Below, piece after piece: positions 7,852 to 15,874 of a stretch of 16,230 bases of DNA (positions are counted from its first letter, which is position 1; each line of letters begins with the position of its first letter). A program made the position numbers and the translations under genes. Source of the stretch: Candidatus Thorarchaeota archaeon (GTDB lineage: Archaea > Asgardarchaeota > Thorarchaeia > Thorarchaeales > Thorarchaeaceae); contig CP070761.1 in the NCBI GenBank assembly GCA_020348985.1, positions 175,500 to 191,729 of the forward strand, read 5' to 3'. Below the pieces are notes generated by a model that worked only from the letters and a program-made list of their open reading frames with translations, was not told the origin of the DNA and made no database searches.

Positions 7852-7867
7852 AAGAAAACCTTTTATG
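7852..7867 (+). promoter_or_regulatory. Putative BRE-TATA promoter for the tRNA-Lys / RNA polymerase transcript
   Basis: Purine-rich AAGAAAACC immediately followed by TTTTATG (7861-7867). It is the best archaeal promoter match I can see upstream of tRNA-Lys and rpo2. Confidence 0.55.
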
Positions 7868-7920
7868 CCCACAAAAGTCCCGTCCGATGCTCAGGTCGAA
7901 CTGCTTCCCACCCATGCATG

Positions 7921-7990
7921 ACCATATGTCACATCCTATCACAATGAGCACACTAGACAATATCCCAATACAGGATGTGTTGCATATGGT
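7921..7990. repeat. Imperfect inverted repeat / long hairpin
   Basis: ACCATATG (7921-7928) pairs with CATATGGT (7983-7990); CACATCCT (7930-7937) pairs with AGGATGTG (7972-7979). Confidence 0.75.
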
Positions 7991-8003
7991 ACTCTAGCGT
8001 ACG

Positions 8004-8080
8004 GGGCTCGTGGCGCAGACAGGTAGCGCAGCAGGCTTTTAACCTGATGGCCGCGGGTTCAAATCCCGCCGAGCCCGCCA
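8004..8080 (+). tRNA. tRNA-Lys(TTT), intronless, CCA encoded
   Basis: Acceptor GGGCTCG/CGAGCCC, G73 and CCA. Anticodon arm CAGG-CTTTTAA-CCTG (G27.A43 mismatch), T arm GCGGG-TTCAAAT-CCCGC. Confidence 0.96.
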
Positions 8081-8111
8081 CGATCCCGGCGTTAGACTGG
8101 ACTGGAGAGCT

Positions 8112-8239
8112 GATTGACAGAGCAAGCAAACGGGGCGGCTACTGCGGTAAATGAATGAGCTCGGATTTTCTGAGGTCATGCGTTGGGAAGCGCGAAATCC
8201 GACAGTGGTACTCCCCGTCCCATCTAATAGGTGTCAGTC
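8112..8239 (+). ncRNA. Candidate structured RNA (rpo2 5' leader or independent ncRNA), family not recognised
   Basis: Five nested helices by hand pairing: 8112-8119/8232-8239, 8130-8135/8213-8218, 8138-8144/8203-8209, 8161-8168/8195-8202, and 8180-8184/8189-8193 capped by a GGGA (GNRA) tetraloop. Confidence 0.5.
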
Positions 8240-8241
8240 TC

Positions 8242-11200
8242 ATGTCAGACGCGGAAGAACGAGGAAAGTATTGGCCTGTCATTGAGTCCTTCTTTGGGCA
8301 CTATGGGCTTGTTGGCCAGCATCTTGATTCCTTCAATAGATTCGTGAGGGAGGAACTGCAGCAAGTAGTTGACAGTGTTGGCGAGCTGAAGCCGAAAGTA
8401 GAAGGGTACACAGTCTCCCTTGGTAGGATTACTGTCGAGCCGCCTTCGGTCAGAGAGGCTGATGGAAGTGAACATGCACTATATCCTAACGAAGCACGAA
8501 TCCGGAACTTAACCTACGCAAGCAAACTATACTTAGAGTGCACCCCGATTAGAAAGGAAGGATCTGTTACAACTCGACTTGAAACTCTAAGAATCTACAT
8601 TGGCGATCTTCCGATTATGCTTCGCAGCGAGAAATGCCTTCTTCATGGTATGTCTGATGAGGATCTTATCAGCCACGGTGAAGACCCAAAGGATCCTGGA
8701 GGCTATTTCATAATCAATGGTTCAGAACGCGTACTAGTGACACAAGAAGATCTGGCGCCAAATAGAATACTCATTGAAGAAGCGAGCAAGAGCTCTAGCT
8801 ATACTCACATCGCCAAAGTCTTCTCAACCTCACGTGGATTCCGTGCTCCTGTTACAATCGAGAGAAAGCGAACAGGAGAGCTCCGTGTATCGTTCCCATC
8901 AGTTCCAGGGAAAATCCCGCTTGCAATCCTTCTGAAGGCTCTCGGCCTAGAATCCGACCGGGAGATTGTTGATGTCATATCGGATGATGAAGAAATTCGA
9001 AACGAGCTGATTGTCACCATTGAACAGTCTGCACCGATCAATGCAGAACGTGATGAGGAAGAAGGTTCCACCAGAGTGAATGCCCTGGATTTCATTGGAA
9101 AGAGGGTTGCTGTTGGGCAGACAAAAGAATACAGGCTAGCTCGAGCTGAGAAGGTTCTTGATAGATACCTGCTTCCACACATTGGCACGGAGGAAAACTA
9201 TCGACTTCAGAAAGCTTACTATCTTGGTCAAATGGTAGAGCGTCTACTCGAGCTCGTATTGGACAAAAGACAGGCTGACGACAAGGACCACTACTCAAAC
9301 AAGAGACTGAAGCTTTCTGGCGACTTGTTGATGTCTCTTTTCCGAGTTGCTCTATACTCCTTGACTCGCGACATAAAGTATCAGCTCGAACGCACAGCAG
9401 TTCGTGGTCGAAAACCTAACATCCGTACAGCCGTAAGAGCAGATGTTATCACGCAGAGACTGAAGCATGCATTGGCAACAGGAAACTGGGTCGGTGGAAA
9501 GGCTGGTGTCTCACAGCTTCTCGACCGAACCAACTACATATCTTCGCTCTCGCATTTGCGCAGAGTAGTATCTCCACTCTCACGTTCGCAGCCGCATTTC
9601 GAAGCTCGGGACCTGCACTCCACTCATTGGGGAAAGATATGTCCAAACGAAACTCCTGAGGGTCCCAATTGTGGTCTGGTCAAAAACATAGCAATGATGG
9701 CATACATTTCGGTTGGAACTAACGAGGAAGCTGTCGAACATGCCTTAATCAAAGCAGAAGTCGAACCGATTGAGAACCTGAAAGGGAAGAGAGGTGCAAA
9801 GTGGGCAGATGTATTCCTAAATGGAAGACTTGTCGGAGTTCATCCCGCCCCGCAGGTCTTGACAAAGACTATCAGGCAGAAGCGACGTGCGGGAGAGATT
9901 GATCATGAAACAAACATCTCCTACTACGAGGAAACAAACGAGGTTCAGGTCAATTGCGATGCTGGCCGTGTAAGACGTCCTGCGATAGTTGTAGAGAATG
10001 CAAAGAGTAGACTTACCGATGAACACCTCAAAATGATAGTAGACGGCGAATGGGGGTTCATCGAATTACTGCGAAATGGTATTGTTGAGTTCTTGGATGC
10101 AGAAGAAGAGGAGAATACACTGATTGCAATGTATCCTTCAGAGATTGCGAAGCCAACCACCCATATGGAGATTGAACCTTCCACGATTCTTGGCATCTCA
10201 GCTGCCCTTATACCGTTCCCTGAAAGAAATCAATCGCCTCGAAATGTCTACATGGCAGGCATGGCAAAGCAATCCGTTGGTGTACCTGCTTCAAACTTCA
10301 GATATAGAGCAGATACGAGAGCACACTTCTTCCACTACCCTCAAATTCCACTTGTCAAGACTCGCGCAATGGATTCGATTGGCTTTGAAGAGAGGCCAGC
10401 ACTGCAGAACTTCGTAGTCGCTATACTATCTTTTGAAGGCTACAACATCGAAGATGCCCTCATCATGAACAAGGCATCAATTGACCGAGGTCTTGGAAGA
10501 AGCACATTCTGCAGAGTCTATGAGAGTGAGGAACGCAAGTACCCTGGAGGCCAGGAAGACAGGTTCGAGATTCCTGATCGTAGCGTTCGTGGATATAGGG
10601 CTTCAGAATCATATAGGAACCTTGGAGAGGACGGTGTTATTGAAACCGAAGTCGAAGTTCAAGGAGGAGATGTTCTCATAGGAAGAACTTCACCGCCGCG
10701 GTTCCTTGAAGAGTACTCAGAGTTTGAGATTGCATCACCAAACCGACGCGAGACTTCTGTAGCCGTGCGTCACGGCGAGTCTGGAGTTGTTGACAGTGTT
10801 ATTCTAACCGAGACAATCGATGGAAACAGACTCGTTAAGGTCAAGGTCAGGGATCTTCGAATACCTGAGCTTGGTGATAAATACGCTTCACGTCATGGTC
10901 AAAAGGGTGTTATCGGATACATAGTTCCTCAGGCTGATGTACCGTTTACCGAAGATGGAGTAGTACCTGATCTGATAATCAACCCTCATGCAATTCCAAG
11001 TAGAATGACAATCGGCCAAATCCTTGAGATGGTTGCTGGAAAGGCCGCATCAATGGATGGCAAGCAGCAAGATGCAACCGCCTTCTCTGGAGTGGGTGAG
11101 GAAGAGCTCTTCCAGATCCTTTCTAAACGTGGACTCCAATACAATGGTCGGGAGACCATGTACTCCGGAATCACCGGTGAGAAACTCACTGTTGACATAT

Positions 11201-11610
11201 TCATTGGTGTCATTGCCTATCAGAAGCTCCATCATATGGTTGCAGACAAGATTCATGCCAGGGCAAGAGGACCCGTCCAGATTCTTACGCGTCAGCCAAC
11301 AGAAGGACGAGCACGAGAAGGTGGTCTTAGATTCGGAGAGATGGAGCGAGACGTTCTGATAGGTCACGGCGCAGCGATTCTTCTGAAAGGACGATTACTC
11401 GATGAATCAGACAAGAGTAACATGCTGGTCTGTGAGGAATGCGGTCTCATTGGAGTCTACGACAGGAACCGTGACGCCTACTACTGTCCAATATGTGGTC
11501 AGGGCGCGAAGATCAGCAGCGTTGTGGTATCTTATGCTTTCAAACTGCTGATACAGGAGATGATGTCACTCGGCCTGGCGTGCAGGCTACGACTGAAGGA
11601 GATGATATAA
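8242..11610 (+). CDS. rpo2: DNA-directed RNA polymerase subunit Rpo2 (B), unsplit
   Basis: GGYFIINGSER, ETPEGPNCGLVKN, GDKYASRHGQKG, NPHAIPSRMT, GGLRFGEMERD and a C-terminal Zn ribbon. Start placed at ATG 8242 (AGGTG SD at 8229-8233) rather than 8155. Confidence 0.98.
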   Translation: MSDAEERGKYWPVIESFFGHYGLVGQHLDSFNRFVREELQQVVDSVGELKPKVEGYTVSLGRITVEPPSVREADGSEHALYPNEARIRNLTYASKLYLECTPIRKEGSVTTRLETLRIYIGDLPIMLRSEKCLLHGMSDEDLISHGEDPKDPGGYFIINGSERVLVTQEDLAPNRILIEEASKSSSYTHIAKVFSTSRGFRAPVTIERKRTGELRVSFPSVPGKIPLAILLKALGLESDREIVDVISDDEEIRNELIVTIEQSAPINAERDEEEGSTRVNALDFIGKRVAVGQTKEYRLARAEKVLDRYLLPHIGTEENYRLQKAYYLGQMVERLLELVLDKRQADDKDHYSNKRLKLSGDLLMSLFRVALYSLTRDIKYQLERTAVRGRKPNIRTAVRADVITQRLKHALATGNWVGGKAGVSQLLDRTNYISSLSHLRRVVSPLSRSQPHFEARDLHSTHWGKICPNETPEGPNCGLVKNIAMMAYISVGTNEEAVEHALIKAEVEPIENLKGKRGAKWADVFLNGRLVGVHPAPQVLTKTIRQKRRAGEIDHETNISYYEETNEVQVNCDAGRVRRPAIVVENAKSRLTDEHLKMIVDGEWGFIELLRNGIVEFLDAEEEENTLIAMYPSEIAKPTTHMEIEPSTILGISAALIPFPERNQSPRNVYMAGMAKQSVGVPASNFRYRADTRAHFFHYPQIPLVKTRAMDSIGFEERPALQNFVVAILSFEGYNIEDALIMNKASIDRGLGRSTFCRVYESEERKYPGGQEDRFEIPDRSVRGYRASESYRNLGEDGVIETEVEVQGGDVLIGRTSPPRFLEEYSEFEIASPNRRETSVAVRHGESGVVDSVILTETIDGNRLVKVKVRDLRIPELGDKYASRHGQKGVIGYIVPQADVPFTEDGVVPDLIINPHAIPSRMTIGQILEMVAGKAASMDGKQQDATAFSGVGEEELFQILSKRGLQYNGRETMYSGITGEKLTVDIFIGVIAYQKLHHMVADKIHARARGPVQILTRQPTEGRAREGGLRFGEMERDVLIGHGAAILLKGRLLDESDKSNMLVCEECGLIGVYDRNRDAYYCPICGQGAKISSVVVSYAFKLLIQEMMSLGLACRLRLKEMI

Positions 11611-14268
11611 TTGTTCGCAGCACAAACCACCAAGAAGATAGATGCAATTGAATTCGGACTACTATCTCCCGATGATGTTCGGAAGATGTCCGTAGCCCAG
11701 ATTGTTGTCGCCGATACCTACGATGAGGATGGGTATCCCATTGAGAGTGGCATAATGGACCCTAGACTGGGAGTCATAGATCCAGGCCAGCGCTGTAGGA
11801 CTTGTGGAAACAGGGTGGGCAATTGCCCCGGCCATTTCGGACATATCGAACTAGCAAGACCTGTAATGCATGCCGGATATGCCAAGGTCATCCACAAAGT
11901 TCTCAGAGCAGTATGCCGTGAGTGTAGCAGAATCTTGCTTACCGATGAAGAGATAGAGTACTACACTGGGCTTTTCAAGAAATATCCTGGCATTGGACAG
12001 AAGACAGCAAATCTCTCCAAGGAGATCCTCAAACGGTGCGCCAAAGTCAAGATATGTCCTCACTGCAGTGAAGAACAGCTAAAGCTGAAGCTCGAGAAGC
12101 CAACATCAATCTATGAAGTTGGCGAAGCAGGTTCTGTAAGACTCACACCAATTGATGTGCGTGCACGACTTGAGAATGTCACGGACGACGATTACCGGCT
12201 GCTAGGGATCAACCCTGAAGCTGCACGGCTCGAATGGGCGATTCTTACAGTACTCGCAGTTCCGCCTGTGACAGTGAGACCTTCAATCACTCTCGAATCT
12301 GGAGTTCGTTCTGAGGATGATTTGAGTCACAAACTAATTGACATAATCAGAATCAACCAAAGACTTAGAGAGAATCTGGATGCTGGTGCACCTCAGTTGA
12401 TTGTAGAAGATCTATGGTCGCTGCTAGAATACCATACCACAACCTATCATGACAACGGAGTTTCAGGAATACCTCCGGCACGACACAGGTCAGGCCGTGC
12501 TCTAAGAACACTTGCCCAGAGACTGAAGGGCAAGGAAGGAAGATTCCGATCTAACCTTTCAGGCAAACGTGTTGACTTTTCTGCTCGAACTGTCATTTCT
12601 CCTGATCCAAACCTCAGTATGAACGAGGTCGGAGTGCCTGAGCAGATTGCCAAGATTCTATCAATTCCACAACGAGTAACTGAATGGAATATCGAAGAGA
12701 TGAAAGAGCTTGTGATTCGTGGTCCAGATAGGCACCCCGGTTCCAACTATCTCATTCGTACTGATGGTAGACGTGTAGACTTGCGATTTGTGAAAGACAG
12801 ATCAATCATAGCAGATACCATCGAACCTGGTTTCATTGTAGAACGTCATCTTGACAGTGGAGATATTGTCCTATTCAATCGTCAACCATCACTACACAGG
12901 ATGTCCATCATGGCACATGAGGTTAGAGTCATGCCGTATCGGACATTCAGACTTTCCCTTTTCGTTTGTCCACCTTACAACGCAGACTTTGATGGAGATG
13001 AGATGAATCTCCATGTTCCCCAGTCAGAAGAAGCAAGAGCAGAGGCGAGAGTCCTTATGAGAGTACAGGAGCAAATATTGTCTCCACGCTTTGGTGGACC
13101 AATCATAGGCGCTCTACAAGACTACATTTCCGCAGCATTTCTTTTGACCAGAAAATCAACTCTCTTTACGGAAACCCGTGTCAACCAGCTTCTGGCGACG
13201 GCAGGTTATGCCGGAGAGCTACCAAAGCCTGCAATCCTAAGTCCTGTAAAACTCTGGACTGGTAAACAGATATTCAGCATGTTCATTCCGGAGGGTCTCT
13301 CATTATCTTTCAAGGCAAACATCTGCAGAAAGTGTAAAACCTGCAAGATTGAAGATTGTGAGAATGATGCCTATGTCGTTATTCGCGACGGAGAACTTCT
13401 CTTCGGTGTTGTCGATGAGAAGGCATTTGGCGCAGGTGAAGCAGATTCGCTCTTCCACAGAATAATCAAAGAGAAGGGCCCAACGATCGCACGTCAATTC
13501 ATGGACTCAGTTGGAAGACTCCTAGTTCGACTGATTACCGATAGGGGATTCACTATGGGGCTGGATGATGTCACCTTACCTCGTGAAGCACAACAACGTA
13601 TCAGAGTTATCCTAGTAGAGGCGGAACAGAAGGTTGAACAGCTCATTGAAACCTATAAACGAGCCGAGCTAGATGCCAATCCAGGTCAAACACTTCTTGA
13701 AACACTTGAACAGCGAATCCAAGCTACGCTTGCTGAAGCTCGTGACTCAGCAGGTGAGGTAGCAGGAGAGCATCTAGGTCTAGAGAACGCTGCTGTAATT
13801 ATGGCACAAACAGGTGCTCGGGGTTCACGTCTTAATCTATCACAAATGGCAGCAGTCGTTGGACAGCAATCTGTACGTGGTGGAAGAATCAGCAGGGGGT
13901 ATATGGGGCGTACTCTTCCACATTTCGAAAGAGGTGATCTTGGAGCCCGAGCCCGAGGATTCGTCACATCCAGCTACAAGAGCGGACTAGACCCCATCGA
14001 ATATTGGTTCCATGCTGCAGGCGGACGCGAAGGCCTTGTGGACACAGCCGTTAGGACATCAACTTCTGGATACATGCAGAGGCGACTTATGACTGCTCTA
14101 CAAGATCTCAAGGTTGAGAGCGATGGTACTGTTCGCACTGCGCCCGGCAGAATAGTACAGTTTCGCTTTGGTGACGACGGAGTGGATCCAAGCAAGTCGG
14201 ACCATGGTCGCTCGGTGAATATCGACATTGCAATTGAGAAGATTCTCGGAAAGAGTCGAGCTAAGTAG
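11611..14268 (+). CDS. rpo1N: DNA-directed RNA polymerase subunit Rpo1N (A')
   Basis: CRTC...CPGHFGHIEL, GKRVDFSARTVI, LFNRQPSLH, catalytic YNADFDGDEMN and bridge helix TAVRTSTSGYMQRRL. TTG start directly after the rpo2 stop, with GGAG just upstream. Confidence 0.98.
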   Translation: MFAAQTTKKIDAIEFGLLSPDDVRKMSVAQIVVADTYDEDGYPIESGIMDPRLGVIDPGQRCRTCGNRVGNCPGHFGHIELARPVMHAGYAKVIHKVLRAVCRECSRILLTDEEIEYYTGLFKKYPGIGQKTANLSKEILKRCAKVKICPHCSEEQLKLKLEKPTSIYEVGEAGSVRLTPIDVRARLENVTDDDYRLLGINPEAARLEWAILTVLAVPPVTVRPSITLESGVRSEDDLSHKLIDIIRINQRLRENLDAGAPQLIVEDLWSLLEYHTTTYHDNGVSGIPPARHRSGRALRTLAQRLKGKEGRFRSNLSGKRVDFSARTVISPDPNLSMNEVGVPEQIAKILSIPQRVTEWNIEEMKELVIRGPDRHPGSNYLIRTDGRRVDLRFVKDRSIIADTIEPGFIVERHLDSGDIVLFNRQPSLHRMSIMAHEVRVMPYRTFRLSLFVCPPYNADFDGDEMNLHVPQSEEARAEARVLMRVQEQILSPRFGGPIIGALQDYISAAFLLTRKSTLFTETRVNQLLATAGYAGELPKPAILSPVKLWTGKQIFSMFIPEGLSLSFKANICRKCKTCKIEDCENDAYVVIRDGELLFGVVDEKAFGAGEADSLFHRIIKEKGPTIARQFMDSVGRLLVRLITDRGFTMGLDDVTLPREAQQRIRVILVEAEQKVEQLIETYKRAELDANPGQTLLETLEQRIQATLAEARDSAGEVAGEHLGLENAAVIMAQTGARGSRLNLSQMAAVVGQQSVRGGRISRGYMGRTLPHFERGDLGARARGFVTSSYKSGLDPIEYWFHAAGGREGLVDTAVRTSTSGYMQRRLMTALQDLKVESDGTVRTAPGRIVQFRFGDDGVDPSKSDHGRSVNIDIAIEKILGKSRAK

Positions 14269-14278
14269 GGGAGTGTAA

Positions 14279-15466
<1,188 letters not shown>

Positions 15467-15580: not shown

Positions 15581-15874
15581 TTGAGCGTAAATCAACCGCT
15601 TGCCAGTGCTGTAAGTACGGGCAAATGCATGATAGGTGCAAGATCCTCCATTGACGCCATAAAGAATGGGGACGCCAAACTTGTAGTAATCGCACGTAAC
15701 TGTTCTCAGGAAGAACGCGAAGACATTGAACGATTTGCAGAGCTTGCACAAATACCAATCCACATTTTCGATGGAACCTCTTGGGATATGGGAGAAACTG
15801 TCGGAAAACCGTTCATGGTGTCTGCAATCGCCGTGATTGAAGCCGGCGACTCGAAGATTCTCAAGATGTTCTGA
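15581..15874 (+). CDS. rpl30e: 50S ribosomal protein L30e (eL30)
   Basis: AVSTGKCMIGARSSIDAIKNGDAKLVVIARNC...GETVGKPFMVSAIAVIEAGDSKIL; canonical position after rpo1C; TTG start with GAGGT SD. Confidence 0.96.
   Translation: MSVNQPLASAVSTGKCMIGARSSIDAIKNGDAKLVVIARNCSQEEREDIERFAELAQIPIHIFDGTSWDMGETVGKPFMVSAIAVIEAGDSKILKMF

Follow-up and report, generated by a model that had tools for sequence, protein, structure and literature searches.

The spacer between the tRNA-Lys gene and rpoB of Thorarchaeota holds a strongly conserved structured RNA of about 90 nt with three arms, undescribed until now. Its parts and neighbours in the window, the whole stretch of 16,230 nucleotides that was analysed, are listed in Table 1. 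The core is built on a long stem of about 20 bp, composed of P1, a bulged C, P2 and P2b, with a three-way junction on top that carries hairpins P3 and P4. P2 is rich in G.U pairs and shows compensatory changes, and P2b keeps its pairing while its sequence varies. A preliminary description of the window had drawn P1, P2/P2b and two hairpins (8155-8179 and 8180-8193), all of which are present. It had also proposed two alternative states of the core, Fold A and Fold B, and the Fold B hairpin (8155-8179) is the conserved P3.

Table 1. Features of the tRNA-Lys/rpoB region (positions in the window)
Feature	Position	Strand	Remarks
5' leader segment of tRNA	7992-8001	+	Complementary to 3' trailer 8088-8096; possible precursor stem
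tRNA-Lys(UUU) with encoded CCA	8004-8080	+	ARAGORN; Rfam tRNA, 68.6 bits
Variable linker	8081-8129	+	Semi-conserved GAGCA box at 8120-8124, then A-rich run
Conserved structured core	8130-8218	+	Covariance-model match 8127-8222, 83.9 bits
P1, 5' strand	8130-8135	+	Partner 8213-8218; sequence nearly invariant; 99.3% of cells paired
Bulged C	8136	+	Directly after P1 5' strand
P2 and P2b, 5' strand	8137-8147	+	Partner 8199-8209
Junction strand J2b/3	8148-8156	+	Semi-conserved R-A-U-G-R-R-Y in the alignment
P3 hairpin	8157-8177	+	9 bp, U-rich loop; extended to 8155-8179 in the window
P4 hairpin	8178-8193	+	Invariant GGGAA loop motif at 8185-8189 (invariant columns, pair counts)
Shine-Dalgarno AGGTG	8229-8233	+	Complementary to 16S 3' end of relatives
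rpoB (unsplit)	8242-11610	+	Pfam; first gene of rpoB-rpoA'-rpoA''-L30e-NusA

The core, as folded (93 nt), reaches -42.2 kcal/mol against -27.3 +/- 3.0 kcal/mol for shuffled sequences (z -4.98), and none of the 200 shuffles was equally good. Cores of relatives gave z values of -3.9 to -5.6 in seven of the nine tested. The whole spacer (about 161-164 nt) reached a z of only -1.43 against shuffles, and therefore the earlier statement that it folds almost end to end is an overstatement. The core has a single dominant fold, the minimum free energy (MFE) fold alone making up 28% of the ensemble of the window core.

In the regions upstream of rpoB (rpo2) of relatives, to which the preliminary description had pointed, the structured core is indeed conserved with compensatory changes. 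Standard pairs fill 94.6% of the pair cells in the alignment of relatives, against 43-49% when the partners are slid, and both partners have changed in seven pairs, where shuffles give 1.1. P2b pairs better within than between genomes (p 0.004), with weaker column-wise support. P1 gives no evidence of covariation because it never varies, and covariation is modest overall because the sequences are so alike. Pairwise identity is 0.78 in the core, compared with 0.42 at the third codon positions of rpoB and 0.43 in the linker, and the core evolves at the slow rate of the first codon positions of rpoB. P1, P2, P3 and the P4 loop hardly vary, and this extends to the G.U pairs, seven of which are conserved in the core, whereas J2b/3 and J4/2b differ in sequence and length. 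Two details of the alignment can be added. For consensus A61-U62 two pairings are possible, one in P4 and one in an extended P3, and the alignment is ambiguous there. The GGGAA loop of P4 could, on paper, pair with the U/C-rich loop of P3; both are invariant, and the upper pairs of P3 covary in one lineage.

These data bear on the explanation that the segment acts as DNA, either as a promoter or as a factor-binding site, or is a chance palindrome with no RNA function. No canonical promoter was located for rpoB or for tRNA-Lys, as a DNA-level role could explain. However, the conserved G.U pairs are mismatches on the other strand, covariance-model scores collapse from 72-99 bits in the sense to at most 21 bits in the antisense orientation, the helices are kept by compensatory changes, and the core has no BRE/TATA-like sequence. 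We give this explanation almost no credence.

The two folds of the preliminary description were said to be mutually exclusive, and an outer helix was said to overlap the ribosome-binding site. Such an RNA would be a riboswitch-like or thermosensing leader, in which ligand or temperature exposes or hides the site. An 8-bp pairing (8161-8168/8195-8202, Fold A) and an outer helix to the Shine-Dalgarno region (8112-8119/8232-8239) can be drawn in the window, genomes L016 and L057 of one other genus have a similar 8-bp complement, and the alternative pairing of A61-U62 also fits such a leader. However, Fold A is 9.6 kcal/mol less stable than Fold B in the window and the stretch that holds its 3' partner is variable, with a complement of at least 6 bp in 7 of 45 distinct relatives, about the chance rate, and none in the other 38. 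The ensemble is dominated by the MFE fold. Neither the outer helix nor the alternative partner at 8094-8100 is conserved, and pairing of the 5' linker with the Shine-Dalgarno region shows no covariation (within- versus between-genome p = 0.44). The predicted partner of the Shine-Dalgarno sequence varies by genome, and the core of the window stops about 10 nt before that sequence. What was drawn as Fold A, as the outer helix and as masking of the ribosome-binding site is window-specific or due to chance. In addition, a ligand pocket would be expected in the junction strands, yet conservation is lowest there and the invariant parts are the helices and the P4 loop, and no conserved alternative pairing that hides the Shine-Dalgarno sequence or forms a terminator was found as an expression platform. 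A two-state leader is thus very improbable in our judgement.

The element was found in 50 species-level Thorarchaeota genomes, at one copy in the genome, whereas 125 genomes of other Asgard families gave no match. The 3' end of tRNA-Lys lies within 90 nt upstream in 49 of the 50 genomes. The rpoB gene follows 16-105 nt downstream (median 24) in 49, the remaining genome ending at a contig edge, and no genome of the 50 has the element at a place apart from rpoB. In relatives the Shine-Dalgarno sequence lies 5-11 nt past the end of the covariance-model match; the rpoB start in the window is most likely the ATG at 8242. The operon also encodes an L7Ae/L30e-family protein (L30e, 15581-15874) and a KH-domain NusA (Pfam). 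The comparison shows that the slot usually held by rpoH is occupied in the Thorarchaeota family by a tRNA and a structured RNA. One genus (G015) has a diverged and poorly folding version, and at least one lineage can therefore do without the element or replace it. A covariance-model search for homologues outside the family, run with filters off, returned nothing beyond a match of 11 bits at the syntenic position in G015. A second Asgard family has its own long conserved rpoB leader, unrelated to the Thorarchaeota element.

What stands of the earlier interpretation is an undescribed structured RNA in the tRNA-Lys/rpoB spacer, without the switch-like core and the overlap with the ribosome-binding site. 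Given the strong selection and the constant attachment to the start of the polymerase operon, the other possibilities that it had named, a protein-bound leader or an RNA processed from a tRNA-rpo transcript, therefore still lead.

Signals in the flanks were searched on both sides of the core. The spacer has no TATA-like box; most other tRNAs of the genome carry one 30-38 nt upstream, and tRNA-Lys itself has no canonical TATA box at the usual distance. The promoter search in the spacer returned a weak recurring motif containing TGG. Transcription may start within the linker near the GAGCA box. The linker has no T-rich tract, the T content of the tRNA-Lys trailer being the second lowest of 35 tRNA trailers, and there is neither a T-rich tract in the listed flank 3' of the core nor a T-run after any hairpin. 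The tRNA leader and trailer form a predicted duplex of -9.9 kcal/mol in the window, and among 44 relatives same-genome duplexes average -6.6 kcal/mol compared with -5.4 kcal/mol for different-genome ones (p 0.019); this complementarity is only suggestive of a possible precursor stem flanking tRNA-Lys.

The explanation that we favour, at a little under an even chance, is that the element belongs to the 5' leader of the rpoB-rpoA'-rpoA''-L30e-NusA mRNA as a domain recognised by a protein, and that it determines how well the message is translated or how stable it is. It would probably be transcribed together with tRNA-Lys. A leader is preferred over a separate gene because the spacer lacks a TATA box and a T-rich tract and because of the complementarity that flanks the tRNA. 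A protein is preferred over a small ligand because the helices, G.U pairs and GGGAA loop are conserved and the junction strands vary. Most likely, tRNA-Lys, element and operon would be made as one transcript, and removal of the tRNA would leave the element in the 5'-terminal region of the mRNA. It would then be bound by a protein or protein complex about 10 nt upstream of the Shine-Dalgarno sequence, and the bound partner would tune ribosome access or mRNA stability, with feedback on RNA polymerase synthesis. The candidate binders are the operon products L30e and NusA, or RNA polymerase itself. The element might even be an autogenous operator. A factor encoded in the operon (RNA polymerase, L30e or NusA) would then gauge how much of itself is present and, through the element, set the output of the catalytic RNA polymerase subunits; we regard this proposal as rather unlikely. 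Against the leader reading, inspection of the alignment revealed no kink-turn signature for L30e or L7Ae, and sequence comparison revealed no rRNA mimicry.

The same flanks could be read in a passive sense, in which the stem marks the cut of the tRNA-mRNA precursor, or shields the rpoB mRNA at its newly made 5' end against 5'-to-3' exonucleases, with no dedicated regulator. Several observations agree with this: the tRNA heads the operon, the spacer has no terminator or promoter, a very stable stem stands at the future 5' end of the mRNA, and the tRNA leader and trailer are complementary. There is also a precedent in the E. coli metY-rimP-nusA-infB operon, where a tRNA gene likewise heads an operon for the transcription and translation machinery that includes NusA. 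Its leader has an RNase III-cleaved hairpin between metY and rimP, and cleavage in this hairpin downstream of the tRNA frees the tRNA and also starts mRNA decay (PMC6511841). The two parts, tRNA and first ORF, are kept apart by this structured RNA, which also affects the fate of the mRNA (PMC6511841, citing Regnier and Grunberg-Manago 1989). The Thorarchaeota element, however, has no sequence or structural homology to the metY leader; it is a three-way junction with sequence-invariant helices, and its cleavage is putative. RNase III is generally lacking in the archaeal lineage, and in the alignment P1-P2 shows no bulge-helix-bulge motif that the archaeal splicing endonuclease could cut. Moreover, a mere structural stem would be expected to drift in sequence while keeping its pairs, whereas P1, P2, P3 and the P4 loop hardly change next to third codon positions that are 42% identical. 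We consider a passive role improbable.

A further possibility is that the core is excised from the tRNA-rpoB precursor as a stable small RNA with a target in trans, such as RNA polymerase or the ribosome, and gains only co-expression from its place before rpoB. It is a compact and very stable domain closed by its own terminal helix, its sequence is conserved at the level of housekeeping RNAs, and it is single-copy, as an RNA gene would be. The tight spacing to the Shine-Dalgarno sequence and the start of rpoB, and the absence of any copy apart from rpoB in the 50 genomes, argue against an independent RNA, as do the lack of a following terminator and of box C/D, H/ACA or other small-RNA signatures. 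Such a small RNA has, in our estimate, a low probability.

The element was compared with known RNA classes. The preliminary description had recognised no Rfam family, and the search agrees: against Rfam 15 at the gathering score the window gave three tRNAs only, and the region 7900-8400 at E<=10 gave nothing within 8081-8241. For box C/D sRNAs, the AUGA- and CUGA-like strings of the window are not conserved (CUGG in most relatives, variable J2b/3), and no snoRNA family matched; for H/ACA sRNAs, P1-P2 is continuous except for a 1-nt bulge, with no conserved ACA after P1. Several other candidates were rejected. A divergent 5S rRNA or 5S mimic was discarded, a genuine 5S being present elsewhere in the genome and the core aligning with a score of 23 compared with 20.4 +/- 4.0 for shuffled sequences. 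A coding frame running from ATG 8155 into rpoB is contradicted by indels in relatives that are not multiples of three and by RpoB homology that begins near 8242. A remnant of rpoH does not fit either, because relatives have rpoH at another place, as an ORF of about 185-220 aa, and a spacer of 161 nt is too small for it. The window has too few G-tracts for a G-quadruplex, and the CUGAUGA- and GAAA-like strings of a hammerhead-like core are not conserved. A literature search on structured or non-coding RNAs of Asgard archaea and Thorarchaeota found nothing relevant.

Among regulated systems, the bacterial autogenous leaders (the L10 leader before rplJL-rpoBC and the rimP leader, Rfam RF01770) are likewise narrowly distributed structured 5' leaders near the ribosome-binding site of operons with RNA polymerase subunits and a ribosomal protein. 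In leaders of this type, feedback by an operon-encoded RNA-binding protein is established. In the Thorarchaeota element the binder is putative, and there is no match to an Rfam leader and no detected rRNA mimicry; at the sequence level, the only matches that blastn-short returned to the 16S and 23S of five relatives were 8-13 nt long, most with E>=1.9 (best E 0.03). We know of no described leader for an archaeal RNA polymerase. Kink-turn operators, bound by L30 on the yeast RPL30 transcript and by L7Ae on the 5' UTR of archaeal L7Ae, offer another parallel, in that the Thorarchaeota operon also has an L7Ae/L30e-family gene, and autoregulation through the leader is therefore conceivable. Unlike these operators, the element shows in its alignment no conserved three-nucleotide bulge followed by tandem G.A/A.G pairs. 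Inspection of the alignment by eye only found in J2b/3 an invariant G and then a purine after a 3-nt stretch, opposed by C and G and not by A and G; the would-be A1n is a conserved C. Dicistronic tRNA-sRNA and tRNA-mRNA units, which are processed by maturation of the tRNA 3' end, also share a transcript with no terminator between their parts, as probably happens in Thorarchaeota, but here the downstream partner is a conserved structured domain fused to a long mRNA and not a box C/D guide RNA.

To our knowledge, described cis-regulatory RNAs of archaea are few, and none belongs to an RNA polymerase operon. The element bears on how archaea, and especially the Asgard archaea, keep the synthesis of their transcription machinery in balance. 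It is a sharply defined candidate, single-copy, about 90 nt long, with a clear fold and a fixed position about 10 nt before the Shine-Dalgarno sequence of rpoB, and it is suited to synthesis and in vitro probing without culturing the organism. The unrelated long rpoB leader of a second Asgard family gives a hint that this operon may carry long leaders more widely. If the element does prove to be an autogenous operator, it would be the first cis-regulatory RNA known to control how much RNA polymerase an archaeon makes, and this in an Asgard lineage.

Every helix of the preliminary description was found in the window sequence, and no Rfam family matches the spacer between tRNA-Lys and rpoB, whether at the gathering score or with the cutoff relaxed to E<=10, as had been proposed. 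The claim that the spacer folds almost end to end fared differently, the stability of the 164-nt spacer being unremarkable (z -1.43). A 93-nt core (8128-8220) reaches -42.2 kcal/mol, versus -27.3 +/- 3.0 in dinucleotide shuffles (z -4.98), and its MFE structure makes up 28% of the ensemble in the window. Core z values were between -3.9 and -5.6 in seven of nine relatives tested, while the remaining two, both divergent, gave -2.85 and -1.11. The long ORF counted from ATG 8155 is rpoB. The order tRNA-Lys, spacer, rpoB can be aligned family-wide (24/24 family members; 68/85 in a further count).

Features of the locus, consensus parts of the element, and the 5S rRNA gene of the same assembly (contig C1)
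Feature	Position	Size	Remarks
Leader-trailer complementarity of tRNA-Lys	7992-8001 with 8088-8096
tRNA-Lys(UUU)	8004-8080
P1		6 bp	almost invariant, followed by a bulged C
P2		9 bp	many G.U pairs
P2b		3-7 bp	sequence-variable, below the three-way junction
P3		9 bp	hairpin with U-rich loop
P4		3-5 bp	stem with eight-base loop ending in invariant GGGAA
Shine-Dalgarno AGGTG	8229-8233		complement of the 3' end of 16S in relatives
rpoB	start at ATG 8242 or close by		placed where homology to RpoB of relatives begins
rpoA'	11611-14268		downstream of rpoB
rpoA''	14282-15466		downstream of rpoA'
L7Ae/L30e-family gene	15581-15874		downstream of rpoA''
KH-domain NusA	begins 15884		downstream of the L7Ae/L30e-family gene
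5S rRNA	C1:1757444-1757564

A covariance model of the core (R1) was based on an alignment of 37 distinct extracted cores, and the consensus architecture was obtained by realigning its 49 matches (45 distinct). Standard pairs occupy 94.6% of pair cells, versus 43-49% after sliding of the 3' partners, and at seven pairs both partners have changed, versus 1.1 in column shuffles. P2b pairing is stronger within than between genomes (p 0.004); with fixed columns its support is weaker, 70% of cells being paired and both-side changes numbering 12 versus 5.8 in shuffles. Seven G.U pairs are conserved, which settles the strand of the element, and R1 scores 72-99 bits on the sense strand and at most 21 on the antisense strand. 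Mean pairwise identity is 0.78 in the core and 0.43 in the linker, and in the same comparison rpoB gives 0.82, 0.92 and 0.42 at codon positions 1, 2 and 3. As judged from these sequence comparisons, the core is under strong purifying selection on its sequence, beyond pairing alone. Such conservation of sequence would not be needed by a stem that served only passively in protection or processing.

A core with two mutually exclusive folds, under an outer helix masking the SD, was rejected. Fold A (8161-8168 with 8195-8202) is 9.6 kcal/mol less stable than Fold B in the window; a complement of at least 6 bp exists in only 7 of 45 relatives, near a roughly estimated chance rate, and its 3' arm falls within the variable J4/2b-P2b stretch. 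The outer helix shows no covariation: duplexes of the 5' linker with the SD region are equally stable whether the two strands come from one genome or from different ones (p 0.44). Partition-function folding leaves the SD 41% unpaired on average, and its partner is inconsistent, being the 5' flank, the core or a local hairpin according to the case.

The element is single-copy in the window's genome. Among 151 sampled genomes of the phylum, R1 matches 23 of the 26 members of the same family and none of the 125 genomes from 26 other families. Among the family members without a match that were checked, one contig begins within rpoB and two have no match to the rpoB N-terminus. Only one genus, G015, has an intact locus and no match. 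Its leader (L105:2105-2270, minus strand) retains a GGGAA-like motif, with P1 and P2 altered by compensatory substitutions; it has no recognisable P3, folds no better than shuffles, reaches 11 bits against R1 with filters off, and could represent a copy that is decaying or has been remodelled. When 185,579 species genomes were scanned with a degenerate pattern, 80 stretches matched. Of these, 50 are archaeal (72-99 bits), from genomes named Candidatus Thorarchaeota, Promethearchaeota or uncultured archaeon; the roughly 30 bacterial ones score nothing with R1 and were dismissed as chance matches. In 49 of the 50 carriers the element is followed by rpoB in the same orientation, at a distance of 16-105 nt (median 24), the remaining one ending at the contig end, and in 49 the 3' end of tRNA-Lys lies at most 90 nt upstream.

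A TATA-like box stands 30-38 nt upstream of most other tRNA genes in the window's genome; the tRNA-Lys/rpoB spacer has none. T content downstream of tRNA-Lys is the second-lowest of the 35 predicted tRNAs, and relatives have no T-run after the core. The end of the tRNA-Lys 5' leader is complementary to the start of the 3' trailer in many lineages, in lineage-specific sequences, and matched duplexes are more stable than mismatched ones (-6.6 versus -5.4 kcal/mol, p 0.019, the genomes not being independent), which suggests a precursor stem prolonging the acceptor arm. Taken together, the spacer without TATA, the T-poor trailer, the missing T-run and this complementarity suggest that one precursor spans tRNA-Lys and the rpoB leader. 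Positions 8120-8129 hold a GAGCA box, semi-conserved, and the A-rich tail that follows it. Upstream of tRNA-Lys there is no canonical TATA at the expected distance, the nearest good candidate being 7860-7867.

Other features of these tRNAs were seen. A long imperfect hairpin (7922-7991) lies directly upstream of tRNA-Lys; its energy is not significant (7890-8003, z -0.86) and its weak Rfam match is meaningless. The rpoB-upstream tRNA-Lys has one or two introns of varying position in many relatives (L003, L005, L008, L010, L012, L013, L017, L026, L027 and L105), with none in the window. A T/C-rich tract stands immediately 3' of most tRNA genes in the window's genome, T5 within 60 nt occurring in 1 of 35, and such tracts may reflect the termination signal of the lineage. 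Two predicted tRNA-Ala genes (C1:2218040, minus; C1:2456458, plus) have identical 60-nt upstream sequences, which points to a repeated segment. This assembly is a single contig of 3.16 Mb with 13.1 kb of N, in which 16S and 23S rRNA genes were not detectable.

Our literature search on structured or non-coding RNAs of Asgard archaea and Thorarchaeota found no description of the element. Structured leaders on transcription and translation operons are already known in bacteria; the RNA family, the fold, the archaeal host and the tRNA-linked setting are new. Ligand-binding riboswitches show the opposite of invariant helices and loop with variable junction strands, a pattern typical of protein-recognised RNAs such as r-protein leaders. 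Since its helices with G.U pairs and its loop are invariant and its junction strands variable, the element is more likely to be recognised by a protein than by a small ligand. The favoured reading, at somewhat under even probability, is a protein-bound leader domain exerting feedback on the rpoB operon. Candidate partners would be the operon's own RNA binders, L30e and NusA, or RNA polymerase. The SD starts 5-11 nt past the end of the model, a short and fixed distance that favours a cis-acting role in translation initiation or in the stability of the 5' end. Inspection of the alignment found no kink-turn signature, and no 5S or rRNA mimicry was found in the sequence of the element. The closest functional precedent for the Thorarchaeota arrangement is the E. 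coli metY-nusA-infB operon, described as having a tRNA at its head, where cleavage in a downstream hairpin frees the tRNA and triggers mRNA decay (PMC6511841).

Thorarchaeota relatives encode RpoH/Rpb5 away from rpoB, and the protein is long, about 185-220 aa (e.g. L094:1486-2043, minus strand), with a C-terminal Rpb5_C domain and, N-terminally, a region that weakly matches a restriction-endonuclease-like domain (Mrr_cat); eight genomes have two tandem copies. RpoH was not found in the window's genome assembly (86% complete). In several other Asgard families rpoB is still immediately preceded by a short RpoH, with an open frame of 81-125 aa. Another Asgard family (f12, genus g27) possesses a highly conserved rpoB leader, unrelated to this element and about 230 nt long (L120:1180-1500; also L121, L124, L126, L127, L129 and L130), behind a canonical BRE/TATA-like box and almost invariant over its first ~100 nt in four aligned species, without an Rfam match or unusual folding stability (z -0.25). 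Long leaders of rpoB operons may be a wider Asgard theme.
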